Assembly (NCBI GenBank): GCA_964364455.1
Contig: CAYIMR010000001.1
Span: forward strand, 2,403 to 66,402
Direction of reading: 5' to 3'
DNA: 64,000 bases
Source of the DNA: an uncultured Planctomycetales bacterium
GTDB taxonomy: Bacteria > Omnitrophota > Gorgyraeia > Zapsychrales > Zapsychraceae
The stretch's first letter is position 1. Every line of letters begins with the position of its first letter. Both the position numbers and the translations under genes were made by a program. The notes under the pieces are model-generated. The model was not told the DNA's origin. It did no database searches and worked only from the letters and a program-made list of their open reading frames with translations. Shown piece after piece: positions 1 through 17,599 of this stretch.

Positions 1-1000
1 GATTGCGGAAATACTCCCTGCCGAATGCGAAACTCGCATTAGTCTCACCACCCATCCACGAATGTTTTTGAGGGGCGGCCGTCAGGCGTGCTTGGTTGAT
101 GATCTTACTGCGCAATTCCTTGATCTCGCTGTCTTCGGAGAGCCCTGGCAGGCCTGCCAGGATTGCCAACACAGCGAGGTAAGCGACGGCGAACCTAGTA
201 TTTCCATCCAATGACCAGCCCGTTCCAGAAATATATTCTGCCTGACGTTGGAATATCACCTGGGCGCGCTCCCGCAGCACTGCAGAAGGGACTCCTTGCA
301 TCGTCAATAAATCAAAAATCGCTGTATCATCTGATTCTAAATTGCCAAAGAACCACTGATTCAGCCGTATCAGCAACCCAGCGTTTTGACGCAGCATCCT
401 CAGTGAAGCGGTGTCACCACGGCCAGCCAGCCAAGTGATAATCTTAATCACATCCTGAGCATTTGGCGTTTCGCTCGCCAAGGTCGTGAGCTGTTCTGTC
501 GCCTCGAGTTCCTGTAACGCTTCGATGGCCAACTCAGATTTCGTCGCATGGCGGCCCAACTGAACCAGTTCAGGAAGCGCGTGGAGTTGTTGTAATGCTC
601 TCAACGCCTTGAAATCATCGAGGCGGTCGGGGGCGTCTGAAGAGAATGGAATGTCGGCTCCTGCCCTCTGAGCCAACTGTTTCACCAAGGCATCGTCGTT
701 TGCAAACTGCGCAAGCACGGATGGAAGGCGTCTAATCTCATAATCTACAATGGTGTCGCCAATCGTACGAAGCGACTTAGGATCTCCCGTGCGAGCTTGA
801 GCGAGTAGGCGTTCCAGGGCCACTTCAGGATCCTTCGTTCCATATTGGCCGTACTCGTAGTACCACGGGTTACGTTTGAACCATTCGAGGAGTTCGTTCT
901 TTGGTTCGGTCGGCTGGACTAAAACGGCTGGGTGAACAACGGGAATAACATCTATCGCTGCCTTGCGAGTTGTGTTCTCGTCTTTAGCTCTGCGTTCTGC
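1..1000 (-). other. Module: alpha-helical HEAT/ARM-like repeat region (C-terminal part of ORF-L, continues beyond the window)
   Basis: Translated stretch reads ...PELVQLGRHATKSELAIEALQELEATEQLTTLASETPNAQDVIKIITWLAGRGDTASLRMLRQNAGLL... The segment at 100-180 (AYLAVLAILAGLPGLSEDSEIKELRSKI) was verified by hand. Confidence 0.3.
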
Positions 1001-4000
1001 TTTCACTTCCAGCCAAATAATAATTACAATTTCTGCCAACACAGGCACAAACAAAACCGTAAGCCACCCGAATACATGATATAAAGCATAACCGGCAAGT
1101 CCCACGAAAATTACCATCGCGGTGGTCAATAGCACCATAACACCGTCTACGGCCTTATTCAGTGCCTTCGCTCGCTCAAATACTTTCTTTATCGACTTAA
1201 GCTGTGCCGCGAGCCACGCCGATCCAACCACGGGGCTGGAGGCGCGTAGATGCTTCTCCACCTCATGCAGCCTGATCTCCTTAAATCGCTGCGCCAGTTC
1301 TTCAAAACTTATGTTCAGATTTCCCCGGACAAATTCATACATCTGGCCATATTGTTTGACCAGCCGGATAATGCTGACTTTCTCGTGCCCTATCCTGTAA
1401 GAAGCTTCCATGATGGCCAGCCATCGGGCGTCTTGATGTTCTTGATGTGCGTAATACAATTGCGACACCTCCGTCAAATACTGCGCCAATAATTCCTGGG
1501 ATCTCTTGCGGTAATACTCCACGATCTGCTGTTTCTCCCGATAATGATCCGGCAGTTGCAAGAGCGTCACCACTTCCTCAAAACTGTACCCGCTGTCTTT
1601 AAACACATCCATCAGCCAGCCGTTCACGCCCGTCTCGACATACTCCTTCGGGCCTCCCGTATCCGTCGCGATGTTCGGATGCCCGTTAAACGACGCCCGT
1701 TGATCCGACGTACCCGCGGCCTCCCGCGTTGACCTCGGCATGCTCACCCACACGTCGCTGGCCTGCGTCGCCAGCTTCATGGCCTCCGTGCCTGAACCTT
1801 CCACAAATATAAACTTGCCTTCCAAATCTTCCCTTTTGGCCAAGGCTTTAAATTGCCGCACCCACTCCCGGCCGACGGTATCTCTTCCGACACCGCCGAC
1901 CAATAAATTCATTTCCAATCCGTATTTTCTGCCCAACGGTGTTTCGTATTCCTTGTCCCTGTCTCCTGTAATATACTCGATTAACCCAAACAGGATCCTT
2001 TGCTCCTTATACTCCACCAACCTCCTGACCAATCCGGCCAACGGACGCTCGATATGTCTGAATGCCGTCCCTGTTGTCTTCAGCAAATATTCATTCAACT
2101 TGCCCTTGGCATGCTGGCCGATTTCATACAAGTCAATACCTCTTACCCCTTTCCCGCTTCCCTCCAGATCCATTAGTTCCCCGCTCTTCCACAACCGCGG
2201 ATCCGATCCATTGGTGATCGCCAAGGTCTTTTCTCCGGCCCCCGGCAACACGGCTAACCTCGTCACCTCCCCATGCTCCTGGGCGACCGCGTTGATGACC
2301 GCGACCCGCGGATTCTCCGCCAACCTTCTCGCCAAATCCAAGCTGCCGTCCCGGATAACATAATCCGGCGCCAGACCTTCACCAACATGCATCCTTAACC
2401 AGGAAACACTGTCATACTTCGGCAAAGCCGCCGCCTCCGGTGTGTGCGTGGTGAGGACGACTTTCGTATCCCGGTAAATACTTGCTTCTTTGCGTAGCCT
2501 GAAATAACCATTCTCAAAATACTGAATGTCGTTCTCTACGGCCTGCACCAGGAAAAACAATTGCGGTTCATTCAACCTCAGGATATCCGGCGCGACGCCC
2601 AGCTGTTTGAATAATTCCACATACGTCCTGCCCAAGAACGCCATCTGCCGTAACTTGCCGGGCTCCTCCGGATACAACGCGTAATTAATCTCCGGCTGCC
2701 TGATCATCAATACCGGTGTCCCATGCGTGAGGACCATATACAACCGTACGTTGTACATAGATCCGTTAAATTCGACATCAAACCGGAAGGCCTCTTTCTT
2801 GTGTTCGGCAACAGATAATCTGCCGACCCCGGCCGTATGATCCCAGTCGATCCCGATATAAGTGCCGCCTCCGGCATGGTCCACATAATGTTCATACAAT
2901 GGCATCAAACCCACCACCCTTTGCCCGGTCTGTCCGTACGCGCCGTAGGTTTCGCCGGCGAGGAACCCTAATCCGCCGCTGGCCAACGCCTGTTGTGCCC
3001 GCGGATCCTTGATCTCATCCAGGAACGCCTCCATCGTCGCGTCCACCGCAAACGGCCCTTGCATTAAGTAAGATCGCAGATCCTCAACGCTGCGGATAGA
3101 TCCGGAGCAGATGTCAGTCTTCCGCGCCCCGGCTTGCGTTTGTTCCCTATGACTTTCCGGACTTAAAATCGGGCTGCTGGCCCCGAGCGAAGTCGGGGGG
3201 GAGGCGGTATCCGGGGCTGCCTGCCTTTCTCTTTCGGCTAAAGCCCTGACCGCCTGCAGGAACACTTCCTCGGGATGGTTCCATCCTTCGATAACAATGC
3301 CCGGGTCGATGCGCCGGACTGTTTCCCTGGCCTTCTCCATACTATCAATGCCGGAAAGTCTGTGCAGGCTGTATAAGAAAGATATCAGCAATGACCTCTT
3401 GAACTTCAACTTAAAATACTGGAATTCATCGGGCAGGTTATCCAGCAATGATTTACCGGTGTCACCGATCGGTGCTTCAATGAAATCTTTGATCGTTCCC
3501 TCAAACTGCTTACCGATAAATTCAGAAGTAATCGAAGCTTCGAAATCTTCAAGGTTGGAAACCCTGTCGACAAATTTGCCGATAATCGCACCGGGGCCAA
3601 ACTTGACAATCTCAAACAAGTAATCCGCGGCATCTTTTTTCTTTGTCAAAACCCAGACCAATTCCATCAATCTATCGAGATCAAAAGGTAAACCATGGAT
3701 ATCTTTCCCGATTGCCGCCAGTCCGTCAATGATTTGCGTTTTGATGAGTTCCAGGACCTCTCGCCTTTCTTCATCGCTAACAGGACGCTTGTTTTTATCT
3801 GTAAATTGCGCTCTTCTTTCTTCAGGAGGCAATTTATCATTACGGGCATTCGTAAAATATCGGATAGAATCCTCCACCGCGTCATGCAAAGGCAGCCCCA
3901 GCGCGACAAGAAGATCTCTTCCGGCCCATCTATTGACATACATGGCCAACACCCCCAGGGGATGAGCGATATAAGGGGCGCCACCCTGTCTTATCTGTCC

Positions 4001-7000
4001 GGAATGATGATACTGAGCTATCTTGTAAAAAATTTCAAAAATTTCTCTATCCAAACCCGGCATCAGGCTGCCTGTTCCTGTAAAATCATCGGGGCCGAAG
4101 AAAAGATACCCGGGCAATCCCCGGAGTTTTTCCTGCACAAAACGCTCCACGGTCCCCTCTGCCAGCTTTAAGGAAACCGGCCCCGTTGCTTCATCCATGA
4201 ACGACGCGCGGGCGAAAGCCAAAGCGACATCCTGGCGTTTAATTTTATGAAGCGATTCCAGAACCAATGTAATTCTTGCTTTTCCGTTACTTGATGTTCC
4301 GCTGAAAATCTTCGCGACATTGATTTGAGGGTCGAGCCGCCCGATGGTATCCAGGAGCCAGGAGAGCTGGCCGACCTTGTCAGGAATTTCCACCATAAAT
4401 TCTTCACGGTATATTTTCGTCCACAATAATTTAGGCAGCCACCAGGTTTTTGATACACTCGTTACATCGGCATCCGGAAGGGTACGTAAGGTCTGCGCAA
4501 TAGCTAATGCACGGGCGGCATCAATACCACGGATGGTAAGGTCGACAACGACTTTAACAAATCCTTTCATATTGGCGCGCAGCTCAGCCGGGATCTCTTT
4601 ATCGACATAAACCGTGAAAAAGCGTATATTGCCGCCAAGATTTTTTACCTCGCGGCTTACGGCGCGCAGCATGCCCGGCCTGTCGTGCCGTGCCCAGATT
4701 TGAAGACTAATTTCTCCATCGTAAAATTCTTTTGTGGTCCTGACAAAGATCTTTCTTTTATCCGAAGGCAGTCTTGCCTTGATCTGTTCCGGAGTAATCT
4801 GCTTGCTGCCGGCGGCCGCGATCAGGGAATCGACGTCTTTGAGATGTTCCTTTTCGAAGGTGAGCAAAAGCGTCTCCAGCCGGGCGAAATTATCAGATTT
4901 AGCAAGCTGTTGGCTGTTCTCTAAACTCAGGGCCTGAGCTACAATCTCTTCCCCTTGAATAAGCGCCTCGCGGTGAATATCCTGAACGGACAACAGATCC
5001 AAAGCGACGGCCAGATACAGCGCGTTCCAGTCAGCCAAGTCAAGTTTTCGGGCCAGCGGATCAAGAAAATCCTGCCTGTATGTTTCTAAAGAATGTATAT
5101 AATGGATCCGCATCAGCATCTTGTTCACATTATTGGCCGCATCATCGTTAAGCTTTCTTTTTTCTTCCACGCCCATACCAGCCAATGCCCCGGCAAGTTT
5201 CTCGGACAAATGATTAACCGGCGAGGAAGAAGAAACAGGGCTGGAGGAGGACGGCCCGTTCATCGCGTATTTCGCTCTCTCCAGGTCTTCCTTGATACGC
5301 TTTAACTCCTCCGCGGAAATCCCTTCGGGGTGTTTCAATGTCAACGCGACCGTCGCGAATTTGCCCTCCACTCTCGTTTTAATACTTAAAACATTGATCC
5401 GGGTATCCCTGTCCCAAAGAGCCCGTAACATGTTGACGAGAACCCCCGTTTTGTGTGGAATACGCTCAATTGAAACAGGGACTCTATTGGAATAAATGAA
5501 TTGGGCCATTTTCCGGGTAAAAGCCGGTTCGGGGACTTTGATATCCGGGATCGTTCCCAGGGCTTCCATAATATTATTGATCTTTTCCGGAGTTACGCCT
5601 TCCACCTCCAGGACAATGTTGACTTCTTTTGTCTCATCCGAATCAAAATCGCCAAGATTCGCCCCAAATTCTGAAATAATCTTTGCGACATCCAGAAAGA
5701 TGCCCGGCCAGTCATATCTGCCCGTAACGATGAGCCGCGCGCGGCCATCGCTCACCGCCCCCTCAAGCCTCACCTTGAGGTTGCCCGCTGAAAAGCGTTC
5801 ATTGATAACTTCCGCGTCGATCTGTTTCGTGCCGACCAAGGCATAAAGATCTTCCACGCTCTTTAACCTGAATGACGGGAACGTCCCTAAAAGACGCTCA
5901 AGCATAATGCGCGTATCGGGCAGACTGAAATCAAGCCGTGTCAATCGTTTCTTGAGCATCTGCCCGCCTATTTTGATAGCGCGCTCTTTGATCTGGTCTT
6001 TCGCGATAATTCCAAGCTCTACCGCCATCAATAATTCCCGCGCGTTTTTAAGCCCCAGGTCGAGCGCCATAGGGCCAAGGAATTGATCCGTGCAACTTAT
6101 GATCCCTTCCATCACTTGCGCATGTTCACGCTTGCCAAGACCAAGCATGCCAATGATTAACCGCGCGCGGTTTGTTTTGACCTTGCTGATTATATGCCTG
6201 TCGATGCTCTTGACGGCCTTCCCGCTGACCACCCGTACCGTTAACCCGTTAGATACCGGTTCTGTCGCTGATAACCATTTCTTTTGAGTAACTTCAAAAC
6301 CTTCTTCTCGTTCCACCGCCACAAAAGCCTCTACGCCGGCATATTGGTCATTGAAAAGATCTATATAGCGATGAGCGGCGATATCGGCCGAGATTGAATT
6401 TAAAGGCAGCCGGAGAGGCACAAACTCCCCTTCATTGACGTTGACCGTTACATAAATCCATTGTTTTTCCAGTTTTTGTAACGCTTCAAAATCTTTGGCA
6501 AAATTACCGCTCAATTTTAATTCGGGGATATTCCTGAAGCGCTGCTTGGATAACGTGGGTTCCTTGGATACATTGTAGATCCAATGCGCCCCGCCCGCTT
6601 CCGTGGAGTACTGATAAAGATCAAAATTGGCGGACGTCATGATCTGTATTTCAAAGGGCCTGGTTGAATCATCCCAATAATCTATATGTACCCCTTCGTA
6701 GTGATCCCCTTTTATCCGATTCCTAGGCTTTGCTCCCATCCAATGCCTGCCCGGCATTCTGACAAATTGGTCAATAAGGCCGATAACCTCTCCCATCAAC
6801 ATTTTGTCTTCACTCAAAATGACAAGACGAAATCCGAATAAATCGTTAATGTCATCAAGCGCAACCCCTTTGCGGGTCATCTTGTTCCTTATCGAAGCGG
6901 GGCCTTTAAACCGTCCGGTCACATAGAATTTGTCTGCCGGTATACTGGATTTAAGGTAAATGATCAGGTTCCGGAGTTCCAGGGCAAGGTATTCCTCGGA

Positions 7001-10000: not shown

Positions 10001-13000
10001 GTGATGTGTATTGATGAGATATTCATTGCCCGTATGCAAGGATCCATACCGGCGATACGTATTTAACGCGCGCTGATAAAATTGCTGGACCGTTTCCTTG
10101 TAAAGGTTCTCGAATTCCAGTTGAGCGTAATAGCGCTGCCGGTCGGCCTCCGCGTAATTATGCCAGGTATAGTTATCGATACGAACGCGATGCACCTCGC
10201 CTTCTTCCTGGCGGTTATAAATCATGATCGGCCCGCGGGTCGTGGCCAGCCAGGTCCATATCGCCGCCTTGAGCCGGCGCGGCCCGTAATGCTGCCATCT
10301 GTCCATCACGCGGAAGAAGTCATGCGTCTCCAGCGCCCCGACCATTTGCGATCCTTTTGGCAATTCATTCGACAACCACCGGAAATGTCCGTTTAATATC
10401 GTCTGCGTGCTGCCGCCTTCCATAATGACCTTCTGCAGATCCGAATACGTCCCTGTCTCCATCGGCATAACACCGGACTTAAGCAGTTGAATGTCCTTCC
10501 CGTAATTTTCACCCACAAAAATGAAATCGGGATAATCTTTGGTGATGTGGGAAACCAGATACACCAAAAGCGGATTGCCTTCGCCGCCATGCCAATGGTT
10601 AACGACCTTGAATCCACCGTCTTGTTTGCGCTCCCAGGAAGTGACGTGACCGAATAATTTCTGCTTGCCGTTCAATGATCTTTCGGCCGGCAGCATGACA
10701 CCGAAATGATGCGCCACGTCGATGCGTGCCCCTTTAATACCATTTTTGGCCAAGCGCCGGATCAGCGTTTCATAGGCGTATAACACCCGGATATCCCGCC
10801 AGTTGATCACCACCGAATCGTGCCATTCAACCGGAAGCCCGTCCTCGTGGTTAACACTGCCATCGGTCGCCAATCGCCGGATGATCTTACCGAAGGATCT
10901 GGCCTTGACGATCGACCATTCAGGCAGCTGCTTAAAGTTCTGGTTCACGTGGGGGATGAGGTCGACCAAAATTTCTATGCCGTATTTTTCTTTAGCCTTT
11001 TTCACGAGTCTGCTCAATCCTTCTTCACCGCCCAATTCCTTGCTGATATTAAATTCCAGCGGCGAGAATAGCGACGCGTCCGGGCCAACCTGACCGATAA
11101 TGTTTTCCGGCCGATCGAGCTGGTAAACGCCCATCACATAAACGTACGCGAACCCTTGCGCATGGAGATACGGCAGTTTCTCTTCGATCGTCTTGAATGT
11201 CCCGGGAATGGCCCTGCCGTTCTCATCGTGAATAATCTTGCCGTCTTCTCCGTAAACACCCAAATACGCCGGCCAGCCTTGATAGATCATCTTCCCTCTC
11301 AAGTCGGGCTGGGCAAAAATCGTCACATTGGCTTGATCATTTTCAACGTACTGCCAGTCCATGCGCCCGTTATCCTGCAGTTGAACGGCGAGGTGGATAA
11401 CTCCTTTACGCGCCCTGAGAACACGGCTGCCTTCCGAAAAACTTAACCGTATGGAATTGTCCGTCTCCGGCACCACATTCAGCTTCCGGTATCTTTTTTG
11501 CCCGGAATAATTCGTTGCCGTGACCAGCCGCGCGTTGAATGTCTTTAATCTTTTCTTGTTCTTGAAGGGATTAAATCCCGCGTCAATGACCATATCACTG
11601 AACTCGACCGCTTCTCCCAGCTTCGCCATGCGTGTCTCGTGGGCCGCGGGGAATTCTTGCGGCCGGCCGCTATATAAATTGTTCAGGATCTTCTGCGTCA
11701 TCACCTGAATGTGATCGTCCTCAACGCCCAGCGCCGCGTTCAAGATGCGTTTGGCTTCTTCTCCCGCTTTGGGATGATGGACAAGTCCTTCCAGCTGCCG
11801 CACGGCATCGACCATTCTCTGGTGGTCTCCGGAATTTAACTCGTAGACGATCTTGTAAAGGGCGGGATGATTTTGGTAGCGCGCGAGGTCTTCGCGCATA
11901 TCGGAGACTTCCCGGGGATCGGTGATGACATCAACGCGCTGGCCATGCCCGAAGAATGACCGGATGTGGCGCGTATCCGTCAGATAATCCACAAAATGAG
12001 CAGGGGCGATCCTGACGATGGCCTGCTCATCTTTGTTCCATTTGTAATAAAGGTCAATATGCTCATCTTCAAAAAAGACCTCTTTAAATTGTTCGATCCT
12101 TTTACCGACGGCCTTCGGTATGTCCGCCCGCGGCAGGATCTGGCGCAGGATCGTTTGGATACGCGCTCTTCTGTCCACGCCCCGGCGCGCGGTTCTTGCC
12201 TCATAAATTTTCCGTATTAATTTTCGTTCAGCCAACATACGCCAAAACTCGAGGAAAAGCTGTTGCTTGCGGTCCCGTTCCCGCGCGTCCGTGCTCTCAA
12301 TCGGGGAGGAGCTGCGGCTGGAGGCGGAGTCGGCTGAGGTGAGCTCTCGACGGCGAAGTCCTTCCATCTTCGCGGCCTCAAGCAGACTCAACCACGCCGC
12401 CGCGACGACATCGGCGGACCCGCCAAATGCTTCGACGTGGTTTGCTCTATGTTCCGCGGATTTGTATAATTTTTCATCATATCCTTCCCGGGCAATTTTT
12501 TTGGCCTTTTGAACGATCGGTTCTTCGTTATTTTCATTGACCACCGGACTGCTGGAAGAATCATTCTGCCTCTTTAAAATAAGCATGCCCAGCGGCGGAA
12601 GTGTGAGATTCAGCGAATAAGGCCGGCCGTGCGTGGAGACAGGTTGCGCCATAACACCGCCGGAGTTTCCGATGTTGCCACCGCCGTAAATGTCCGCGTC
12701 GCTATTGAGGATTTTCTGCCAATATCCGCCCTGCGGCACGCCGATACGGTAATCCTGCCGGAGCAGGGGTGTGAAGTTCATAACCACCACGACGTTGCCT
12801 TGAGGATTTCGACCCCGGCGTATGAAGCTGATTACACTTTGCTCCCAATCACTAAAATCGATCCACTCAAAACCATGCCCTTCGAAATCCACCTCATGAA
12901 GGGCGGACTCGCGGCGGTAGAGACCGTTGAGATCCCGCACCCATCTCTGCGTCCCTTGATGGCCGGGATAATTCCGAAGATGCCATTCAATTGCTGTATT

Positions 13001-16000
13001 CGCGTCCCACTCTTTCGCCTGCCCGAATTCCCCGCCCATAAACAACAACTTCTTGCCGGGCATGGTAAACTGCAGACCGAAAAGTAATCTCAAGTTGGCA
13101 AAGACCTGCCGCTCGTCGCCAGGCATTCTTTCTTTCAGCGAGCGCTTGCCGTGAACGACTTCATCATGCGAAAGCGGAAGAACAAAATTCTCGGTAGAAG
13201 CGTAGACCAGATAAAATGTCAAAAGATGCTGGTTGAATTTCCGATAAATGGGATCGAGCTTCATATATTCCAGGGTATCGTGCATCCAGCCCATGGACCA
13301 TTTCATCGAAAAGCCGAGACCACCCATATCCGCCGGGCGGGAGACCATCGGCCAGGAAGTCGATTCTTCGGCGATGGTCAAAATGCCCGGATATTGCCCA
13401 TGCGCAGCGATGTTGAAATCTTTCAGAAACGCGACGGCTTCGAGGTTCTCCCTTCCGCCATAAACGTTGGGAATCCATTCGCCGTCTTTACGCGAATAAT
13501 CGCGGTAGAGCATTGATGCCACCGCGTCCACCCGCAGGCCGTCGATATGATACTTCTCAAGCCAGAAGAGAGCGTTGGCGATCAGAAAACTGCGCACCTC
13601 ATGGCGGCTGTAATTAAAGGTGTTTGTGCCCCAGTCCGGATGATCCCGTTCGCGCGCGTCGCTGTAGGAGAAAAGATGCGTGCCGTCAAAATTGTAAAGC
13701 CCGACTTCATCCTTCGGGAAATGCGCCGGCACCCAATCAACAAGGACTCCAATGCCCTGCTGATGCAGATGATCCACCAGATACATGAAATCCTGCGGCG
13801 TGCCGTAACGCGACGTCGGGGCATAGAAATTGCTGACCTGATAACCCCAGGAAGGATAATAAAGATGTTCCGCGACAGGCATAAATTCAACGTGGGTAAA
13901 GTTCATGTCTTTGACATATTGGGCCAGACGCGGCGCGATCTCGCGATAAGTTAACCATCGGTTGTTCTCCCCGCGCAGCCAGGATCCGAGGTGAATTTCA
14001 TAAACGGAAACCGGCGCGTCCAAGGCCTGCTTTCGGGCGCGCTCACCCATCCACTGCGCGTCTTGCCATTCGTAGTCCAGACCCCAGATAATCGAAGCGT
14101 TACTGGCGGGCTGTTCGCTCGTCGGGAACTGATTAAATGAAGCGCAGGGATCAGATTTCATGCGCGTTATACCATCCGCGCCCTTCACGGCGAATTTATA
14201 AACCGTGCCCGCGCCGATATTCGGGACAAAGATAGCCCAGATACCGGCGTCCAGACGCCAGAGGCAATGCGCACCCTGATCCCATTCATTGAAATCACCG
14301 ACCAGAGAAATTGCCTGCGCGTTGGGCGCCCACACGGCAAAATACGTGCCGATCGTCCGGCCGTCGGCCTGAATCAGATGCGCCCCAAGCTTCTCATAAA
14401 TACGGTAATGCGTCCCTTGGCCGACCAAAAGTTGTCTGTCGAAATCACTTAAATGGAGCTTTTGAATCTCTTTTAGAACCGCCGGATAAGACAGTTCTAC
14501 AATCCTGTTCTCGCGCTCCACAGAGGCAAGGAAGTTATTCAATTCCCGTGGATGAACCGCGTAATAAACATACATGATTTCCAACGCCGAAACCGGACTG
14601 GAAGAGGCTTCCGCAATAATCACCCGGCCGTTTTTGCCGAATCTGCTCACTAAGTTTAAATTTTTGCGTGGGGCAGGATCACCGGTAATGAAGACTTCTT
14701 CCCGATCCGTTTGAATCATCCCGGCCACATAGGAATCATGGCGGATATTCCCGGTTTCTAACGGCCGCCCATTAACTTCTATATTCTTAAGAAGAGTCTG
14801 CATGGCCCGGAGTTCATCCATAGAACTAGTGTCATCGGACAATTTTCTCCCGATCTTTTGCGCTATGGAAGCCAACCAATTAAGACCTGTGCTTCCAACA
14901 CCCTTACCCTGCAATTTTGCATCGACAAAATGATTTAGCACCAAAATACTGTTTTTTGAGACGAAGAACTCAAGAACGCCGATGGGCACGGATTTCTCTC
15001 CCATGGAATAATTGTAGGCGTAATATTGCACTCCATCACAAGAGGGCCTCTTTGCGCCGCGGCCTTGGATGGTAATCTTTTTAATCGAAGAATCTCCTTC
15101 AATGTTGTCCAATACCATGCGCGCGGGCAAAATAACCAAGCCCTTCCCGCTTCCTTGTACCGGTGAAGAGGAATACTTCCGTTCTCCCTTGGCCTGGACT
15201 TCGGCGACAACGGCGCGCGCGGGTATGGATCGATCGAGCGGAATGTTGATGAAGATCGACTCTTCCGCCGGTTTGGCATGAACTTCTTTAAATCGCTGGA
15301 CAACGCCTTGTGCGGAGTCACCAGACACACTCCGGGCACCGAACAGACCTCTGGAACCTGACATTGTCAAAATCGATTCTTCACCAGGAATTGTGCCGAT
15401 CGCAGGCGGATCGCGGAAGCTTAACTTGTGGCCGCGTCTGTTTTCAGCGAGGAGATAATTCCCGCCGTACCCAAGATAGCCGGCAATAGCCAGCCGGACA
15501 GCGGATGCGTCATGATGAGCTGGATTATCGATGGCAAGCCAGAGACCATACCATTGACCATTGACCATTGACCATTGACCATAAACTGATACCGGGATCA
15601 CGGCCGGAGTCTGCGGCAACGCCGCCGGTACCGCCGGAACGTTCGTTGTTGTATGGGCGGCTTTGAAGCTGAATTTCTTGGCATTGACCGCCATCTGTCC
15701 GGCCATATCCGCGATTACCTTGAGATCTTTGACGGAAACGATCTTTGTGCCGGCTGTGTTATGAGCGCGGACATATTCCGCCCAGACAAGATCATTGACA
15801 TCAACAACAGGCGAAGAAGAAGAGGCGACCACCGCGCCGACGGGCGAATTCGTTATTTCGTCTTTCGTCTTTCGTCCTTCGTCCGTCATTTCCTGTTCAC
15901 TGTACCCTGTCCCTGCACCAAGGGATACCCTGTCCCCTGCATCCATTGCTTCCTTCAGACTCAAAACAACCAGACCCTTCTTCTTGCGCTTAGGCTGGGT

Positions 16001-16039
16001 CTTCGCCCATTCGTCATAGCGCGGAAACCACAACGCCAT
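1..16039 (-). CDS. Giant multidomain fusion ORF (ORF-L). The C-terminal part continues past window position 1. The start is provisionally the ATG at 16037-16039 (MALWFPRYDEWAKTQ...), but the true start could lie as far up as about 16200.
   Basis: Hand translation of the reverse strand gives continuous protein-like sequence with the recognisable domains listed below. No stops were met in the followed frame, but continuity between anchors was not exhaustively checked. Plus-strand ORFs over this span in the track (e.g. 12629..13087, 13547..13954) look like antisense artefacts. Confidence 0.45.
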   Translation of the reverse strand, partial: MALWFPRYDEWAKTQPKRKKKGLVVLSLKEAMDAGDRVSLGAGTGYSEQEMTDEGRKTKDEITNSPVGAVVASSSSPVVDVNDLVWAEYVRAHNTAGTKIVSVKDLKVIADMAGQMAVNAKKFSFKAAHTTTNVPAVPAALPQTPAVIPVSVYGQWSMVNGQWYGLWLAIDNPAHHDASAVRLAIAGYLGYGGNYLLAENRRGHKLSFRDPPAIGTIPGEESILTMSGSRGLFGARSVSGDSAQGVVQRFKEVHAKPAEESIFINIPLDRSIPARAVVAEVQAKGERKYSSSPVQGSGKGLVILPARMVLDNIEGDSSIKKITIQGRGAKRPSCDGVQYYAYNYSMGEKSVPIGVLEFFVSKNSILVLNHFVDAKLQGKGVGSTGLNWLASIAQKIGRKLSDDTSSMDELRAMQTLLKNIEVNGRPLETGNIRHDSYVAGMIQTDREEVFITGDPAPRKNLNLVSRFGKNGRVIIAEASSSPVSALEIMYVYYAVHPRELNNFLASVERENRIVELSYPAVLKEIQKLHLSDFDRQLLVGQGTHYRIYEKLGAHLIQADGRTIGTYFAVWAPNAQAISLVGDFNEWDQGAHCLWRLDAGIWAIFVPNIGAGTVYKFAVKGADGITRMKSDPCASFNQFPTSEQPASNASIIWGLDYEWQDAQWMGERARKQALDAPVSVYEIHLGSWLRGENNRWLTYREIAPRLAQYVKDMNFTHVEFMPVAEHLYYPSWGYQVSNFYAPTSRYGTPQDFMYLVDHLHQQGIGVLVDWVPAHFPKDEVGLYNFDGTHLFSYSDARERDHPDWGTNTFNYSRHEVRSFLIANALFWLEKYHIDGLRVDAVASMLYRDYSRKDGEWIPNVYGGRENLEAVAFLKDFNIAAHGQYPGILTIAEESTSWPMVSRPADMGGLGFSMKWSMGWMHDTLEYMKLDPIYRKFNQHLLTFYLVYASTENFVLPLSHDEVVHGKRSLKERMPGDERQVFANLRLLFGLQFTMPGKKLLFMGGEFGQAKEWDANTAIEWHLRNYPGHQGTQRWVRDLNGLYRRESALHEVDFEGHGFEWIDFSDWEQSVISFIRRGRNPQGNVVVVMNFTPLLRQDYRIGVPQGGYWQKILNSDADIYGGGNIGNSGGVMAQPVSTHGRPYSLNLTLPPLGMLILKRQNDSSSSPVVNENNEEPIVQKAKKIAREGYDEKLYKSAEHRANHVEAFGGSADVVAAAWLSLLEAAKMEGLRRRELTSADSASSRSSSPIESTDARERDRKQQLFLEFWRMLAERKLIRKIYEARTARRGVDRRARIQTILRQILPRADIPKAVGKRIEQFKEVFFEDEHIDLYYKWNKDEQAIVRIAPAHFVDYLTDTRHIRSFFGHGQRVDVITDPREVSDMREDLARYQNHPALYKIVYELNSGDHQRMVDAVRQLEGLVHHPKAGEEAKRILNAALGVEDDHIQVMTQKILNNLYSGRPQEFPAAHETRMAKLGEAVEFSDMVIDAGFNPFKNKKRLKTFNARLVTATNYSGQKRYRKLNVVPETDNSIRLSFSEGSRVLRARKGVIHLAVQLQDNGRMDWQYVENDQANVTIFAQPDLRGKMIYQGWPAYLGVYGEDGKIIHDENGRAIPGTFKTIEEKLPYLHAQGFAYVYVMGVYQLDRPENIIGQVGPDASLFSPLEFNISKELGGEEGLSRLVKKAKEKYGIEILVDLIPHVNQNFKQLPEWSIVKARSFGKIIRRLATDGSVNHEDGLPVEWHDSVVINWRDIRVLYAYETLIRRLAKNGIKGARIDVAHHFGVMLPAERSLNGKQKLFGHVTSWERKQDGGFKVVNHWHGGEGNPLLVYLVSHITKDYPDFIFVGENYGKDIQLLKSGVMPMETGTYSDLQKVIMEGGSTQTILNGHFRWLSNELPKGSQMVGALETHDFFRVMDRWQHYGPRRLKAAIWTWLATTRGPIMIYNRQEEGEVHRVRIDNYTWHNYAEADRQRYYAQLEFENLYKETVQQFYQRALNTYRRYGSLHTGNEYLINTHHDRIFAIARFNKKEKLIFVINEWWETAFAGIDLAPLQKQLEIESSSKQFYMVTDLENGREEVFTGKELLAEGIRLTLGSYQPAVLAVRKVRGLKDDLSDGVGSLTTNARGRALRDALKRYSEQYRPRRIKVNNAFRWLEKAVLHRSYAFFHERFSYLARIVESRATRGQLNTTDLTVIMHDMAVKHPKEADKMKRMLESLTKRTEDELVREAAQKVRRWMDVGAAVFVSPEAVPYFKAGGMANVVGELAMVLAKSGLKVYVVLPQYQNLDKSTVQYTGKVAQIFLGRHGHVAGSIAEKYFEDVDYVFLDNPYFADALYGQSSKEHESLRAAFLSLGALEAMKALNIHPSIIIGNDWMTAPLMAHLNSDRSLYKRDPHFSQARTIGWIHNNGQDYQFKVGRYQNGVDLLGNLGLAPEDYGWFIDPHRSDLINFMHAFIRHAGIIVPVSPGQLRDYVQTDDKGGAEGFRHVFIEKKQARRLFSVTNGIPLRERQRGRFGMTMFDVHTPEDLQKFLKIQRKKQIESRIIMAEEYPQFWPASGGRSEYINENYFVGNLVSRITDQKGIQYVVPFVRRVMYSGRYPDVSFVFAGVGDPLLMGQLNALIYEFPGRVGYNNDFVSNQKPLYYHVYGIGDFYNSFSMWEPGGISPMEALAFGVPGLVSDKQGHKSTIRSIYVPELARITRINDNEPDFNGARFPVDEYRVDRTVDYIMFAFDRLYAAWKARNENDQWDTLRAHALMSDNSWEKTSESVEALFKYTMGRQEYFRILAKTLMLDDASSPAGDKLSSSSPVVNENNEEPIVQKAKKIAREGYDEKLYKSAEHRANHVEAFGGSADVVAAAWLSLLEAAKMEGLRRRGIAEFQGTALWDLLNGLKELRNLEYNPPRLKNINTFFGDLWKRAAVVKGSEVVRNQMGMIITTAANAKVLLLACADKIEALSSASGERRERILYEILEVYIPLAERSGRRDMADFLRDKWFYYTNYEEYTQLAEALKKRTGLNREQSEEYLALELRNLIIYLKSSIPADKFYVTGRFKGPASIRNKMTRKGVALDDINDLFGFRLVILSEDKMLMGEVIGLIDQFVRMPGRHWMGAKPRNRIKGDHYEGVHIDYWDDSTRPFEIQIMTSANFDLYQYSTEAGGAHWIYNVSKEPTLSKQRFRNIPELKLSGNFAKDFEALQKLEKQWIYVTVNVNEGEFVPLRLPLNSISADIAAHRYIDLFNDQYAGVEAFVAVEREEGFEVTQKKWLSATEPVSNGLTVRVVSGKAVKSIDRHIISKVKTNRARLIIGMLGLGKREHAQVMEGIISCTDQFLGPMALDLGLKNARELLMAVELGIIAKDQIKERAIKIGGQMLKKRLTRLDFSLPDTRIMLERLLGTFPSFRLKSVEDLYALVGTKQIDAEVINERFSAGNLKVRLEGAVSDGRARLIVTGRYDWPGIFLDVAKIISEFGANLGDFDSDETKEVNIVLEVEGVTPEKINNIMEALGTIPDIKVPEPAFTRKMAQFIYSNRVPVSIERIPHKTGVLVNMLRALWDRDTRINVLSIKTRVEGKFATVALTLKHPEGISAEELKRIKEDLERAKYAMNGPSSSSPVSSSSPVNHLSEKLAGALAGMGVEEKRKLNDDAANNVNKMLMRIHYIHSLETYRQDFLDPLARKLDLADWNALYLAVALDLLSVQDIHREALIQGEEIVAQALSLENSQQLAKSDNFARLETLLLTFEKEHLKDVDSLIAAAGSKQITPEQIKARLPSDKRKIFVRTTKEFYDGEISLQIWARHDRPGMLRAVSREVKNLGGNIRFFTVYVDKEIPAELRANMKGFVKVVVDLTIRGIDAARALAIAQTLRTLPDADVTSVSKTWWLPKLLWTKIYREEFMVEIPDKVGQLSWLLDTIGRLDPQINVAKIFSGTSSNGKARITLVLESLHKIKRQDVALAFARASFMDEATGPVSLKLAEGTVERFVQEKLRGLPGYLFFGPDDFTGTGSLMPGLDREIFEIFYKIAQYHHSGQIRQGGAPYIAHPLGVLAMYVNRWAGRDLLVALGLPLHDAVEDSIRYFTNARNDKLPPEERRAQFTDKNKRPVSDEERREVLELIKTQIIDGLAAIGKDIHGLPFDLDRLMELVWVLTKKKDAADYLFEIVKFGPGAIIGKFVDRVSNLEDFEASITSEFIGKQFEGTIKDFIEAPIGDTGKSLLDNLPDEFQYFKLKFKRSLLISFLYSLHRLSGIDSMEKARETVRRIDPGIVIEGWNHPEEVFLQAVRALAERERQAAPDTASPPTSLGASSPILSPESHREQTQAGARKTDICSGSIRSVEDLRSYLMQGPFAVDATMEAFLDEIKDPRAQQALASGGLGFLAGETYGAYGQTGQRVVGLMPLYEHYVDHAGGGTYIGIDWDHTAGVGRLSVAEHKKEAFRFDVEFNGSMYNVRLYMVLTHGTPVLMIRQPEINYALYPEEPGKLRQMAFLGRTYVELFKQLGVAPDILRLNEPQLFFLVQAVENDIQYFENGYFRLRKEASIYRDTKVVLTTHTPEAAALPKYDSVSWLRMHVGEGLAPDYVIRDGSLDLARRLAENPRVAVINAVAQEHGEVTRLAVLPGAGEKTLAITNGSDPRLWKSGELMDLEGSGKGVRGIDLYEIGQHAKGKLNEYLLKTTGTAFRHIERPLAGLVRRLVEYKEQRILFGLIEYITGDRDKEYETPLGRKYGLEMNLLVGGVGRDTVGREWVRQFKALAKREDLEGKFIFVEGSGTEAMKLATQASDVWVSMPRSTREAAGTSDQRASFNGHPNIATDTGGPKEYVETGVNGWLMDVFKDSGYSFEEVVTLLQLPDHYREKQQIVEYYRKRSQELLAQYLTEVSQLYYAHQEHQDARWLAIMEASYRIGHEKVSIIRLVKQYGQMYEFVRGNLNISFEELAQRFKEIRLHEVEKHLRASSPVVGSAWLAAQLKSIKKVFERAKALNKAVDGVMVLLTTAMVIFVGLAGYALYHVFGWLTVLFVPVLAEIVIIIWLEVKAERRAKDENTTRKAAIDVIPVVHPAVLVQPTEPKNELLEWFKRNPWYYEYGQYGTKDPEVALERLLAQARTGDPKSLRTIGDTIVDYEIRRLPSVLAQFANDDALVKQLAQRAGADIPFSSDAPDRLDDFKALRALQQLHALPELVQLGRHATKSELAIEALQELEATEQLTTLASETPNAQDVIKIITWLAGRGDTASLRMLRQNAGLLIRLNQWFFGNLESDDTAIFDLLTMQGVPSAVLRERAQVIFQRQAEYISGTGWSLDGNTRFAVAYLAVLAILAGLPGLSEDSEIKELRSKIINQARLTAAPQKHSWMGGETNASFAFGREYFRN
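1000..1200 (-). other. Module: two predicted transmembrane helices
   Basis: Translation reads VDGVMVLLTTAMVIFVGLAGYALYHVFGWLTVLFVPVLAEIVIIIWLEVKAERR. Confidence 0.4.
1500..3100 (-). other. Module: GT35-family alpha-glucan (glycogen/maltodextrin) phosphorylase-like
   Basis: Motifs ASGGLGFLAGETYG (verified at 2941-3000), VVLTTHTPEAAALPKYD (verified at 2401-2460), and a C-terminal ...SMPRSTREAAGTSDQRASFNGHPNIATDTGGPKEYVETGVNGWLM (EASGTSGMK-like, Lys not conserved). Confidence 0.55.
3200..4100 (-). other. Module: HD-superfamily (RelA/SpoT-type) hydrolase domain
   Basis: HHSGQIRQGGAPYIAHPLGVLAMYV...LHDAVEDS verified against plus-strand 3901-4020. A downstream ...KFVDRVSNLED matches the ADRLHNMRT-like motif. 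Confidence 0.6.
4100..5230 (-). other. Module: two ACT-like regulatory domains
   Basis: ISLQIWARHDRPGMLRAVSREVKNLGGNIRFFTV and MVEIPDKVGQLSWLLDTIGRLDPQINVAKIF.... Confidence 0.4.
5250..7440 (-). other. Module: RelA/SpoT-homologue (RSH) block containing a (p)ppGpp-synthetase-like domain, a TGS-like domain and an ACT domain, preceded by an HD-like helical segment
   Basis: Synthetase motif EIQIMTSANFDLYQYSTEAGGAHWIYN verified at about 6560-6680, and GRFKGPASIRNKMTRKG upstream. TGS-like at about 6370-6470. ACT GRARLIVTGRYDWPGIFLDVAKIISEFGANL at about 5300-5560. KVLLLACADKIEAL...ILYEILEVYIPLAERSG at about 7300-7420. Confidence 0.55.
7438..7655. repeat. Exact 216-bp direct repeat, copy A. It lies inside ORF-L coding sequence and encodes ...RRRLGEMKAAELLSLWAAAVVDASGGFAEVHNARHEASKYLKEDYGERAIKKAKQVIPEENNENVVPSSSS on the minus strand (given C- to N-terminus, i.e. 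in plus-strand coordinate order).
   Basis: Base-for-base identical to 12344-12561 by direct comparison. The flanks diverge immediately on both sides. Confidence 0.85.
7700..9600 (-). other. Module: GT5/GT4 glycogen(starch)-synthase-like glycosyltransferase
   Basis: AAVFVSPEAVPYFKAGGMANVVGELAMVLAKSGLKVYVVLP and ...SMWEPGGISPMEALAFGVPGLVSDKQG, matching the KTGGLADV and SxFEPCGLxQ motif positions. Confidence 0.45.
9700..12290 (-). other. Module: GH13 alpha-amylase-family catalytic domain with an N-terminal extension (GlgE/amylosucrase-like)
   Basis: Region I ILVDLIPHVNQN verified at 10931-10965. Region II GARIDVAHHFG verified at 10693-10731. Region III FIFVGENYG. Region IV GALETHDFF. Confidence 0.55.
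12344..12561. repeat. Exact 216-bp direct repeat, copy B
   Basis: Identical to 7438-7655. The upstream context differs (ELTSADSASSRSSSPI...). Confidence 0.85.
12600..14580 (-). other. glgB: Module: 1,4-alpha-glucan branching enzyme (GlgB, GH13_9)-like
   Basis: YEKLGAHL, VWAPNAQAISLVGDFNEWD, VYEIHLGSW, LRVDAVASMLY, HDEVVHGK. ...PGILTIAEESTSWPMVSRP verified at 13321-13380. Confidence 0.6.
14620..15160 (-). other. Module: GNAT-type N-acetyltransferase-like
   Basis: VDAKLQGKGVGSTGLNWLASIAQKIGRK matches GNAT motif A. The module is flanked by SSSPVQ (verified at about 15165-15185) and SSSPVS (about 14590). Confidence 0.4.
15553..15585. repeat. Tandem repeat (CCATTGAC)x4 inside coding sequence. 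It encodes a Gly-Gln-Trp repeat (YGQWSMVNGQWYGLW).
   Basis: Directly visible: ccattgaccattgaccattgaccattgacca. Confidence 0.8.
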
Positions 16040-16287
16040 CTGGAATTCCTTATCGGACAACTTGATCTTGACGGAATTCAACGCGGCGGACGCGCGGCCG
16101 CTGAAGTAAGCCCAAGCATCAACTAGGCTCAATTGAATCTTACCGTCGAAGCCGGGCACCAGAACGATTTCGGCAATCTTGACAATCCTGAAAGGCGCGA
16201 CTATACTTGGGATGAATATGAAAGGATTCTTTACTAATCGCAGGCGTGAACTGGTCGGCAAAAGTTTTGTGACTACCGAGGAATAAA

Positions 16288-16380
16288 ATGTTTTTAGCAG
16301 GCCTATTAGCGGTAGCCGCCATAGCCGTGGTAATTGCCGTGTGGTTTGGAATCGATCAATACCGCGCCCATCACCACTAA
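16288..16380 (+). CDS. Small hydrophobic peptide 1 (30 aa): MFLAGLLAVAAIAVVIAVWFGIDQYRAHHH
   Basis: ATG 16288 is preceded by GAGGA 7 nt upstream. One predicted TM helix followed by DQYR and a His3 tail. Paralogous to the next two peptides. Confidence 0.5.
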   Translation: MFLAGLLAVAAIAVVIAVWFGIDQYRAHHH

Positions 16381-16437
16381 TCATTGCCCCTAAAGGCGCC
16401 GCCCCACCCGGTATTCTCGGTTGCCCGGAAAGGAGTG

Positions 16438-16539
16438 ATGAATAAAATGTTATTCGTACTGGTAACGTTCTTGATGATCGGCCTGGCTTTCTTGATCTGG
16501 ATTGCCATCGACCAATACCGCCTGAAACATCATCATTGA
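16438..16539 (+). CDS. Small hydrophobic peptide 2 (33 aa): MNKMLFVLVTFLMIGLAFLIWIAIDQYRLKHHH
   Basis: AAAGGAG Shine-Dalgarno 3-9 nt upstream of the ATG. Same TM helix plus IDQYR plus HHH pattern. Confidence 0.5.
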   Translation: MNKMLFVLVTFLMIGLAFLIWIAIDQYRLKHHH

Positions 16540-16741
16540 CCGGGTCTGCTTCGTCCCTCGCCCCTCGTCCCTCGTCCTTCATGGCCTCAAAATTCGGCGC
16601 GTTGGTCTTTCGGGCCAGATCTTCCTGAATGCCGCCCTGCGCCAAGACGCCCAAAGAAGCCGTTCGGATTGAGCCGAAGGTTAAGTTGACGAGAGACCGC
16701 GGATATGTTATAGCTACACTGTTAAATCGGGAGGTGGGATA

Positions 16742-16843
16742 ATGGGAATATATATTTTGCTCGGCGGGTTTCTTATCTTCGCGCTTATTATCGCCGAGAT
16801 CGTGATCCGTCAGGACAGGGGCCGCCATCATCACGGAGCTTGA
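16742..16843 (+). CDS. Small hydrophobic peptide 3 (33 aa): MGIYILLGGFLIFALIIAEIVIRQDRGRHHHGA
   Basis: GGGAGG upstream of the ATG. Third paralogue, with a more diverged tail (RQDRGRHHH). Confidence 0.45.
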   Translation: MGIYILLGGFLIFALIIAEIVIRQDRGRHHHGA

Positions 16844-16967
16844 TCCGCGCGATCCTTCTCCGATCGAGGCCTTCTGCGGCTTAAATATAATTCCGCCTTG
16901 ACCATATCTCTCAGACATGTTAGGATTTGACGATAATTTAGAGTAATCTTTAAAAGGAACAGAAAAG

Positions 16968-17587: not shown

Positions 17588-17599
17588 TTCTTCAGCGCC

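Follow-up and report, generated by a model that had tools for sequence, protein, structure and literature searches.

Alpha-glucan and RelA/SpoT-type modules joined by a recurrent peptide motif in a giant bacterial open reading frame

Two questions stand open in the literature on the giant proteins of Omnitrophota, namely whether such a protein acts as one chain or is cut, and why enzymes of housekeeping type are embedded in it. The 64,000-nucleotide stretch of contig CAYIMR010000001.1 (assembly GCA_964364455.1) analysed here, referred to as the window, contains on its minus strand one stop-free open reading frame (ORF) in which enzymes of alpha-glucan metabolism stand next to RelA/SpoT-type alarmone modules. 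We consider it likely that the visible C-terminal part of this frame is best explained as an enzyme array lying between two hydrophobic hairpins, with its glucan and alarmone modules joined by the recurrent motif [AS]SSP[VI].

One frame and a recurrent joint

In a six-frame translation of the window, the minus-strand frame from 64000 to 2 comprises 21,333 codons without a single stop and is open at both window ends, whereas the remaining five frames contain 531-1358 stops each, which excludes chance as the source of the open frame. The original prediction, made from the sequence letters, had divided this territory into two giant ORFs encoding two polypeptides, "ORF-L", taken to start at the ATG at 16039, and "ORF-R" upstream of it. 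This division does not hold, as position 16039 is an internal in-frame ATG (context ..SDKEFQ-M-ALWFPRY..) with no stop 5' of it, and both parts therefore form a single ORF. The ORF is cut by both window edges and thus measures at least 21,333 codons, of which positions 1..16039 on the minus strand are the last ~5,350 visible ones. The predicted fusion of alpha-glucan enzymes with two RelA/SpoT-type blocks in one polypeptide, on the other hand, is borne out: no stop codon separates the modules of 1..16039, the frame is continuously open, and Pfam searches with its translation recovered GH13, GT5, RelA_SpoT, HD and ACT families. From N- to C-terminus, and hence from high to low window coordinates, the array consists of two or three unassigned modules, GlgB, a GH13 and GT5 block, RelA/SpoT homologue (RSH) block 1, the ACT/HD block 2 and a GT35-like GT-B module. 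The frame and the features of the array are:

2..64000, minus strand: stop-free giant frame, containing both "ORF-L" and "ORF-R"
17690..17806, minus strand: hydrophobic hairpin 1, two predicted transmembrane (TM) helices (Kyte-Doolittle peaks 1.89 and 1.81), preceding the enzyme array
15824..17689, minus strand: 622-residue module that includes ATG 16039, no Pfam match at E<=1 or E<=0.1
15167..15805, minus strand: module M2, 213 residues, motif-delimited, no Pfam or NCBIfam match
14600..15154, minus strand: module M3, 185 residues, motif-delimited, earlier called "GNAT", no significant match
12551..14587, minus strand: full-length GlgB (1,4-alpha-glucan branching enzyme), SSSPV joint on each side
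11321..12295, minus strand: 325-residue region N-terminal to the second GH13 module, no significant Pfam or NCBIfam match
9731..11221, minus strand: divergent GH13 (alpha-amylase family) module, Pfam Alpha-amylase
7733..9328, minus strand: GlgA-like GT5 glycogen/starch synthase module, Pfam Glyco_transf_5 and Glycos_transf_1
5243..7633, minus strand: RSH block 1, RelA-like long RSH of 797 residues, Pfam HD_4, RelA_SpoT and ACT_4
7115-7588, minus strand: degenerate HD of block 1
6572-6916, minus strand: synthetase of block 1
6251-6463, minus strand: TGS-like stretch of block 1
5537-5728, minus strand: ACT_4 of block 1
3173..5215, minus strand: RSH block 2, 681 residues, AH/RIS-like part, then ACT, then HD
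4592-4705, minus strand: ACT of block 2, Pfam ACT 41.7 bits
3446-4066, minus strand: HD hydrolase of block 2, motifs intact in alignments to Protein Data Bank (PDB) entries
1235..3163, minus strand: GT35-like GT-B module of 643 residues, Lys that binds pyridoxal phosphate (PLP) absent, placed by TIGR02094 and alignment to 9l6i
1010..1153, minus strand: hydrophobic hairpin 2, two predicted TM helices (Kyte-Doolittle peaks 2.18 and 2.47), closing the enzyme array
2..1009, minus strand: helical region, again with a hydrophobic segment (near 193); the ORF runs on past the window edge

TM segments were called with a Kyte-Doolittle hydropathy scan using a 19-residue window.

These modules are delimited by a short peptide. 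The sequence SSP[VI] occurs 32 times in the giant frame, compared to 0.39 occurrences expected, and SSSP[VI] 19 times compared to 0.02, and none of the 32 copies falls inside a domain match (P ~5e-6). Within 1..16039 the copies are spaced by 189, 217, 682, 800, 685 and 646 residues, which are ordinary protein sizes, and they follow the natural C-termini of GlgB, GT5 and the GT35-like module at distances of 7, 30 and 34 residues, respectively. An SSSPV joint also lies ~10 residues upstream of hairpin 1, and an ASSPV joint precedes hairpin 2. The motif is written with many different Ser, Pro and Val codons and its flanks are variable, which argues for selection at the peptide level and not for a DNA repeat; a DNA-level origin was rejected on account of this codon variation and because no DNA repeat family covers the sites. 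The joints are thus real, are selected as peptides and delimit modules of the size of an enzyme. Those in the array, with coordinates checked by translation, are:

15806-15820, minus strand: joint SSSPV
15158-15172, minus strand: joint
14591-14605, minus strand: joint
12542-12556, minus strand: joint
12299-12313, minus strand: joint SSSPI
7634-7648, minus strand: joint
5234-5248, minus strand: joint
5216-5230, minus strand: joint
3167-3181, minus strand: joint ASSPI
1229-1243, minus strand: joint ASSPV

The motif is missing from residues 3,576-11,485 of the frame (window 53275-29548), which comprise TM clusters and a peptidoglycan-attacking region. It is kept at orthologous sites in two related contigs, L025 and L026, and a giant fragment of different content, P0121, contains 13 copies of [AS]SSP[VIA] delimiting one-enzyme modules (low-molecular-weight phosphatase, HAD, PGK). 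Further relatives carry joints of their own: ASSA[VL] is present in five copies in P0019, and LGCFFGLP(V/I)MA(V/M)T in nine copies at a spacing of 251-665 residues in P0002 (residues 440-3896), where one copy falls ~14 residues past the natural GlgB C-terminus 'LPPLSVVIFK'. The LGCFFGLP sequence of P0002 was inspected as a possible lipobox and rejected as such, as no hydrophobic h-region precedes it and the residue three places ahead of the Cys, normally Leu in a lipobox, varies. In several relatives, P0003-P0009, a recurrent motif was not seen. Neither of the two preprints on Omnitrophota giant genes (West-Roberts et al., bioRxiv 10.1101/2023.11.21.568195; 2026 preprint, 10.64898/2026.06.07.730766) mentions recurrent joint motifs, the 2026 preprint contains no occurrence of linker, cleav(age), motif or alarmone, and we found no paper linking Omnitrophota with polyproteins.

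Glucan and alarmone modules

As predicted, the array contains a GlgB module, which by its sequence is bona fide and complete. It matches Pfam CBM_48 (72.6 bits), Alpha-amylase (68.6 bits) and Alpha-amylase_C (93.9 bits) above their curated cut-offs, reaches 919 bits with the NCBIfam equivalog NF003811 (cut-off 741) and 768 bits with the cyanobacterial GlgB 5gqw from the PDB, and keeps in the alignment to the latter all four GH13 regions (DWVPAHF, GLRVDAVASM, IAEEST, LSHDEVVHGK), including the catalytic Asp/Glu/Asp. With free-standing glgB genes from many phyla it shares 49-58% identity, and in the GTDB species-representative genomes such free-standing genes were the only relatives found. An AlphaFold2 (AF2) model of GlgB plus flanks, based on a multiple sequence alignment, is confident from ~66 to 707 and collapses three residues before the downstream joint motif, with part of this collapse being due to the alignment ending there.

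The second GH13 module matches Pfam Alpha-amylase with 46 bits (cut-off 22) and displays the four regions ILVDLIPH, GARIDVAHH, FVGENYG and ETHDF, of which region I was aligned by the search tool and regions II-IV were read by eye. Its family was predicted correctly, but not its supposed affinity to GlgE or amylosucrase, of which no NCBIfam model matched. The best NCBIfam matches are MalA, TreC and TreY, all at 31 bits or less; a PDB search at E<=10 with a shorter query found TreY 5zcr at best (E 0.002, region I/N-terminal part only), and a search at E<=1e-3 with a longer query spanning the whole second-GH13 block gave no match. The module thus seems to be a generic GH13 enzyme without assignable subfamily specificity. 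It is followed by the predicted GlgA-like GT5 module, with matches to Glyco_transf_5 (127 bits) and Glycos_transf_1 (33 bits) above cut-offs and with the motifs K-x-GG, R..QKG and E-P-x-G kept in the alignment to starch synthase 4hln. The last GT-B module of the array matches Glycos_transf_1 with 35 bits and Glyco_transf_5 with 23 bits, both above their Pfam cut-offs, and its best NCBIfam fit is the alpha-glucan phosphorylase model TIGR02094; in the alignment to phosphorylase 9l6i, EAAGTSDQR pairs with EASGTSGEK, and SGGLGFLAGE with SGGLGMLAGD. Compared with its orthologue in L026, dN/dS is ~0.2.

RSH block 1 has the domain order pseudo-HD, synthetase, TGS-like stretch, AH/RIS (a weak match) and ACT, with Pfam matches above cut-offs for HD_4 (35 bits), RelA_SpoT (41 bits) and ACT_4 (35.5 bits). 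In alignments to Rel (6yxa, 7oiw) the synthetase keeps RFKGPASIRNKM, DLFGFR, YEGVH, FEIQI(M)T and AHWIY, whereas the HD motif is lost, with LSLLEAA where LHDxVED is expected, and the hydrolase signature is absent. Of the predicted synthetase, TGS and ACT, the first and last were thus recovered together with an additional degenerate HD, but TGS shows up only where the alignment to B. subtilis Rel 6yxa weakly extends, and has no Pfam TGS match. Block 1 is 86% identical to the protein P0010 from an Omnitrophica metagenome-assembled genome (MAG), at dN/dS ~0.3.

Block 2, predicted as HD plus ACT, contains both and an AH/RIS-like part as well. Its HD domain keeps HPL and LHDAVEDS aligned to Rel and to the small alarmone hydrolases Lmo0812 and MESH1; with KFVDRVSNL (DRxxN), read from the sequence, it carries the full H..HD..ED..D..N hydrolase signature. 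Block 2 matches the N-terminal part of TIGR00691 with 32 bits, and its own N-terminal part is a paralogue of the AH/RIS and ACT parts of block 1 (residues 19307-19489 and 19645-19846 of the frame, E 6e-14). When 1.84 billion representatives were searched with the RSH block, proteins of 1,860-5,805 residues accounted for about half of the 20 best matches, and ordinary RSHs of ~700-750 residues prevail from ~E 1e-16 on. RSH modules thus recur in related giant proteins.

Across the array, catalytic residues are kept in GlgB, GT5 and the HD of block 2, largely kept in the synthetase, and lost in the HD of block 1 and at the cofactor Lys of the GT35-like module. The original prediction of an essentially complete make-and-break glycogen toolkit on both parts of the ORF was not confirmed: the break arm is weak, and GlgC, GlgX, PGM and GH77 are absent from the window. 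As to the content assigned to "ORF-R", the GlgA-like GT5 and UDPGP modules are present; for the GalT/HIT module there is only an HAHFQ (HxHxQ) motif near 20308, residue 14565, within a 362-residue module (19886-20971) that was negative both in Pfam at E<=0.1 and in the PDB at E<=1.

The modules N-terminal to GlgB lack a family assignment. A joint homologue search with M2 and M3 yielded one match, 39% identical over 34% of the query. M3 had been called a GNAT, and its stretch LQGKGVGSTG does resemble Q-x-x-G-x-G; but the Pfam matches to Acetyltransf_CG (E 0.07) and Acetyltransf_1 (E 0.17) are far below cut-off, a PDB search with M3 returned no GNAT and a spurious DPP10 as sole match, and a single-sequence AF2 model is unusable (pLDDT, the model's confidence score, of 33). 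M3 is thus no more than a putative GNAT.

Relatives, module turnover and the rest of the frame

The closest relatives of the array are ORF fragments with 74-86% identity, located on an Omnitrophica-labelled MAG contig and on a metagenome contig without organism label. The former, L025 (JACQCG010000054.1, GCA_016201705.1), encodes P0010, annotated as 'HD domain-containing protein, partial [Candidatus Omnitrophica bacterium]', and matches the RSH block; the latter, L026 (CXWL01119936.1, 1-19208), carries the GT35-like module at 74-85% identity. The RSH-block search also found a 99%-identical fragment of 282 residues on a 911-nt JGI contig. Comparison with these fragments bears on how the array came about, as does a perfect direct repeat within it:

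12346..12560, minus strand: 215-nt perfect direct repeat, copy 1, encoding SSSSPV and the initial ~65 RSH-module residues, and beginning the 4,908-nt block missing from L025
7438..7652, minus strand: 215-nt perfect direct repeat, copy 2, true start of the RSH module

Both copies are 100% identical, start exactly at SSSSPV and lie 4908 nt (1636 codons) apart, and the 4,908-nt in-frame block between them contains the second GH13 and GT5. In contig L025 the RSH module directly follows the GlgB module, so that the GH13 and GT5 block is missing there from motif to motif; the block is either a recent module insertion or the subject of a deletion. In L026 the GT35-like module has another neighbourhood: homology to the window stops at the ASSPV joint, beyond which the contig resembles another joint of the window. 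Modules are thus gained and lost, and change their order, as whole units whose junctions fall at the joint motif. The dN/dS of 0.2-0.4 relative to the orthologous fragments in L025 and L026 indicates that they are maintained by purifying selection.

Both contigs show irregularities. L025 has frame changes at ~2555 and ~3300 and its GlgB catalytic core is short of ~146 residues, regions I and II included, which is either an assembly error or module decay. In L026, a giant-gene fragment in which the modules are the same but differently ordered, the GT35-like module lies between relatives of window residues 2460-3227 and an SLT/M23-like region; the reading frame seems to change at ~3.4 kb and again at ~14.9 kb, and a stop lies at ~16.8 kb.

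The main protein homologue search, with a 5,000-residue query, returned only very large multi-domain proteins. The best large matches of the GlgB module are the contig-filling Omnitrophica fragments P0002 (4,682 residues on 14,046 nt) and P0007 (5,799 residues on 17,399 nt); P0016 is an RSH-bearing fragment of 5,805 residues labelled Omnitrophota, and P0001 (2,949 residues, GlgB and GT5) is followed by genes E, F and G of a type II secretion system (T2SS). When the 16-kb region was compared to 50,697 phage and 72,556 plasmid records, no near-identity DNA match was found, and two protein-guided scans of IMG/VR revealed no relative. P0003, P0004 and P0006 (L022-L024) are complete proteins of ~4,030-4,050 residues that fuse GlgB, two GT5 and GH77 (4-alpha-glucanotransferase), and so are a smaller, self-contained alpha-glucan enzyme fusion; P0004 occurs on 18 contigs of up to 764 kb, beside a dockerin-bearing protein. 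Cys makes up 0.1% of the residues in the giant frame and 0.0-0.1% in P0001, P0003, P0004, P0006, P0008, P0013, P0019-P0021, P0025 and P0060, and is not depleted in P0002, P0007 and P0016. P0016 contains four copies of a ~75-residue unit with HExxH (residues ~1-110, 2370-2480, 3137-3250 and 4198-4310; ..GRAPPELSSW..GNVAAC..VYLHPYFF..ILYHELISHI..), which matches no Pfam family and is possibly a small internal metalloprotease. No HExxH occurs in the window.

Over its whole length, the frame displays 27 hydrophobic segments in 6 clusters by Kyte-Doolittle analysis and is tiled by ~17 Pfam families above cut-off, none of which dominates: P-loop kinase-like, SLT, M23, GH2, radical SAM, GFO_IDH_MocA, UDPGP, methyltransferases, GT5, GH13, RSH and ACT. 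Upstream of the array lie P-loop and HPr-kinase-like modules, a cluster of ~7 hydrophobic segments and further TM clusters, a territory of ~5,300 residues with PG_binding_1, SLT, M23 and a GH2 barrel, and an enzyme run consisting of radical SAM/SPASM with GFO_IDH_MocA, a Pol-beta-type nucleotidyltransferase, UDPGP, Methyltransf_28, the second GlgA-like GT5 and a class I methyltransferase. The territory is located as follows:

Window 36400-55000, minus strand: peptidoglycan-attacking territory, PG_binding_1 ~50.0 kb, SLT 49.3-49.7 kb, M23 ~48.5 kb, GH2 ~40.6 kb

It is bounded by clusters of hydrophobic segments and is otherwise devoid of Pfam matches. GC content is 55-58% at 38-52 kb versus 43-47% at 20-38 kb, which suggests a mosaic origin. 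A ~225-residue module that includes the P-loop/HPr-kinase-C-like region is tandemly duplicated at window 61281-62182 (65% protein and 77% DNA identity), and each copy ends ..DYAAAA..ASS(S)PV. The closed ORFs listed in the window lie on the plus strand only (37886-50308, 333-432 residues), antisense to the GC-rich part of the giant frame, and most likely are shadow ORFs and not genes. Scans of the window detected no Rfam family and no tRNA, and terminator-like sites were no more frequent than expected by chance (22 versus 20.1 +/- 5).

Readings of the array and known systems

What might such an array do? We propose that the hairpin-bounded array lies on the cytoplasmic side, as its GT5 and RSH modules, like the UDPGP, radical-SAM and S-adenosylmethionine (SAM)-dependent modules of the same chain, need nucleotide substrates, and as hairpins preserve sidedness; our confidence in this placement is moderate. 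Together with the upstream UDPGP-like and second GlgA-like modules, the array would build and branch an alpha-1,4/1,6-glucan store, while the chain would bring along an alarmone synthetase and hydrolase of its own, equipped with ACT domains for ligand sensing. A single transcript would so yield polymer storage and starvation signal at a fixed stoichiometry. The joint motif may serve as a recognised hinge or as a processing site.

Several observations weigh against this proposal. The coupling of glucan storage to alarmone signalling is read from domain content only, and we hold it with moderate confidence; furthermore, the ends of the ORF and its flanking genes fall beyond the window. Several modules score below their family cut-offs, namely GT5 (150 bits for TIGR02095, cut-off 328), RSH block 1 (113 bits for TIGR00691, cut-off 499) and the GT35-like module (86 bits for TIGR02094, cut-off 191.7). 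In the latter, an Arg replaces the PLP-binding Lys, and the identical Arg is present in the orthologue in L026, so that of the predicted phosphorylase-like character the nearest family stands, but not the cofactor site. The synthetase of block 1 has Met for Arg (EIQIMT versus EVQIRT) and neither an RxKD nor an ExDD motif. As for sidedness, TM parity derived from the crude hydropathy scan gives no consistent in/out assignment, and in the 2026 preprint (10.64898/2026.06.07.730766) DeepTMHMM puts the multi-Pfam content of a 147-kaa giant on the periplasmic/extracellular face.

Alternatively, the ORF could encode a polyprotein, that is, a precursor cut co- or post-translationally at [AS]SSP[VI] into ordinary-sized enzymes and small membrane peptides, a possibility that we consider tentative. 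The ORF would then stand in for an operon rather than for a tethered metabolon, with new modules spliced in and out at the joints, an extension that we hold equally doubtful. The tight five-residue signature with variable flanks, its peptide-level selection, its exclusive occurrence between domains at 7-34 residues past natural C-termini and its location in low-confidence linker sequence of the GlgB model would all suit a cleavage site, and other lineages have equally sharp joints (LGCFFGLPVMA in P0002, ASSA[VL] in P0019), as co-evolution of site and protease would give. The four-fold HExxH unit of P0016 would also fit, and West-Roberts et al. (bioRxiv 10.1101/2023.11.21.568195) proposed that C39/S8 domains cleave giants, stating the cleavage points to be unknown. 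Yet the window contains no fitting protease, its sole peptidase being M23, and TM hairpins too are preceded by the motif, so that cleavage at these sites would strand short membrane pieces and abolish the tether. The lack of a recurrent motif in P0003-P0009 also speaks against it, and so short a Ser/Pro motif might just as well act as a hinge or be modified. If a polyprotein were nonetheless correct, Omnitrophota giant ORFs would be bacterial polyproteins, with operon-scale enzyme sets cut into dozens of normal-sized proteins.

It is less probable, and in our view unlikely, that the chain is an extracytoplasmic scaffold, the modules of which act on or bind glucans of prey or cell surface outside the membrane as part of a predatory coat, with vestigial nucleotide-dependent activities. 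This would agree with the presence of PG_binding_1, SLT, M23 and a GH2 TIM barrel between TM clusters of the same ORF, with the near-absence of Cys (0.1%), which in our judgement would fit an exported protein, with the missing cofactor Lys of the GT35-like module, with the view of giants as agents of prey cell-wall degradation (West-Roberts et al.) and with the outside placement of the largest giant's multi-enzyme content mentioned above. However, the peptidoglycan-attacking region is set apart by bounding TM clusters, a different GC content and the lack of the joint motif, and ATP/GTP, NDP-sugars or SAM, on which the RSH, GT5, radical-SAM, SAM-methyltransferase and UDPGP modules depend, are unavailable outside the cell. 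Moreover, the modules are under purifying selection, and the conservation of catalytic residues in GlgB, GT5, the RSH synthetase and the second HD makes a non-catalytic role less likely.

An assembly chimera, or a 'polyvalent protein' of a phage or conjugative element, is highly improbable, even though a 215-nt perfect repeat flanks a 4.9-kb block and GC content ranges from 43% to 58% along the ORF. Combinations of SLT, M23 and methyltransferase domains reportedly occur in polyvalent proteins too, as Iyer and colleagues are said to have described in 2017. The flanks of giant genes are moreover rich in mobile elements (10.64898/2026.06.07.730766). A chimera, however, would not hold one frame open for 64 kb, and the module junctions recur in independent assemblies (L025, L026 and, at 99% identity, P0012); a mobile origin is contradicted by the phage, plasmid and IMG/VR searches and by the Omnitrophica/Omnitrophota MAG labels of the named relatives. 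Finally, the division into two giant fusion genes, "ORF-L" at 1..16039 and a separate "ORF-R" upstream of it, to which the in-frame ATG at 16039 lends itself, is refuted at the sequence level by the lack of any stop between 64000 and 2, by the location of that ATG within the 622-residue module beginning after the hairpin at 17690-17806, and by the absence of a terminator excess.

The locus fits, as far as its sequence tells, the published class of Omnitrophota giant genes of multi-enzyme type, in which such an architecture has already been described. West-Roberts et al. reported Omnitrophota giant proteins of up to 85,804 residues, found the GT5 glycogen-synthase-like domain to be the second most common one in 'Archaeovorins', suggested that GT5 might turn prey-derived sugars into storage compounds, and noted that secretion-system genes typically precede giant genes. 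The 2026 preprint defined a 'multi-enzyme metabolic cluster' class of up to 147,155 residues, in which one Pfam module serves sugar metabolism (PF08323, GT1, PGM, radical SAM) and another regulation (methyltransferase, GNAT, HAD, HD). This class is characterized by more than 10,000 and typically more than 30,000 codons, numerous TM segments and many Pfam families tiling the chain; the frame described here has at least 21,333 codons, and the other two traits are both found in the window. Further marks of the class, namely a SecA-DEAD-like domain, a C39/S8 peptidase and neighbouring T2SS/Tad and carbohydrate genes, were not seen in the window, beyond which the ORF ends and flanks lie.

A fusion of glycogen enzymes is in itself unsurprising for this class. 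What the present analysis adds is the joint motif with module-wise insertions and deletions, the recurrent RSH modules and a phosphorylase-like module without the PLP Lys. A sharply defined joint that orthologues keep and at which modules come and go provides candidate joints or cleavage points, whereby the question of cut or uncut chains becomes testable by proteomics and giant chains can be split rationally for structure prediction. The RelA-like synthetase and separate hydrolase belong to the recurrent module repertoire, which hints that alarmone signalling is wired into giant proteins.

Compared to known systems, the array shares with the classical glycogen pathway (GlgC, GlgA, GlgB, GlgP, GlgX) a GlgB that passes the equivalog model and the GlgA-like motifs K-x-GG and E-P-x-G. 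That pathway is made up of separate genes, whereas here the enzymes are fused rather than arranged in an operon, a UDPGP-like module is present in the window instead of GlgC, GlgX and GH77 are absent, and the phosphorylase-like module carries Arg for the PLP Lys. Block 1 appears to have the domain order of long RSHs (Rel, RelA, SpoT) and has, at 797 residues, the size of a free RSH, with a degenerate hydrolase as in RelA; block 2 shares the H..HD..ED..D..N signature with SpoT and with the small alarmone hydrolase (SAH) Mesh1. Unlike free RSHs, to which they are just ~30% identical, both blocks are embedded in a giant chain, the order AH/RIS-like, ACT, HD of block 2 is unusual, and the block 1 synthetase differs by EIQIMT in place of EVQIRT and by the missing RxKD/ExDD.

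Viral polyproteins, the eukaryotic AROM, CAD and FAS fusions and polyvalent proteins likewise combine whole enzymes in one frame, with short junctions and shuffled modules, but here the chain has at least 21,333 residues, ~40 visible modules and membrane-anchoring clusters. From the polyvalent proteins of phages and conjugative elements it further differs in that no relative was found in the phage, plasmid and IMG/VR searches, and by the absence of MuF, relaxase and anti-restriction domains from the Pfam scans. The two Omnitrophota preprints, as searched, mention no RelA/SpoT or alarmone modules, no full GlgB and no recurrent joint motif, while the SecA-DEAD, C39/S8 and dockerin domains of Omnitrophota giants were not seen in the window, where the ORF is incomplete. 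With these giants the locus has in common one ORF that runs to tens of thousands of codons and contains many TM segments, as well as GT5, GT1, radical SAM, methyltransferase, HD and peptidoglycan- or glycan-attacking domains. Its nearest relatives with names carry Omnitrophica or Omnitrophota labels, and one relative has T2SS genes beside it.

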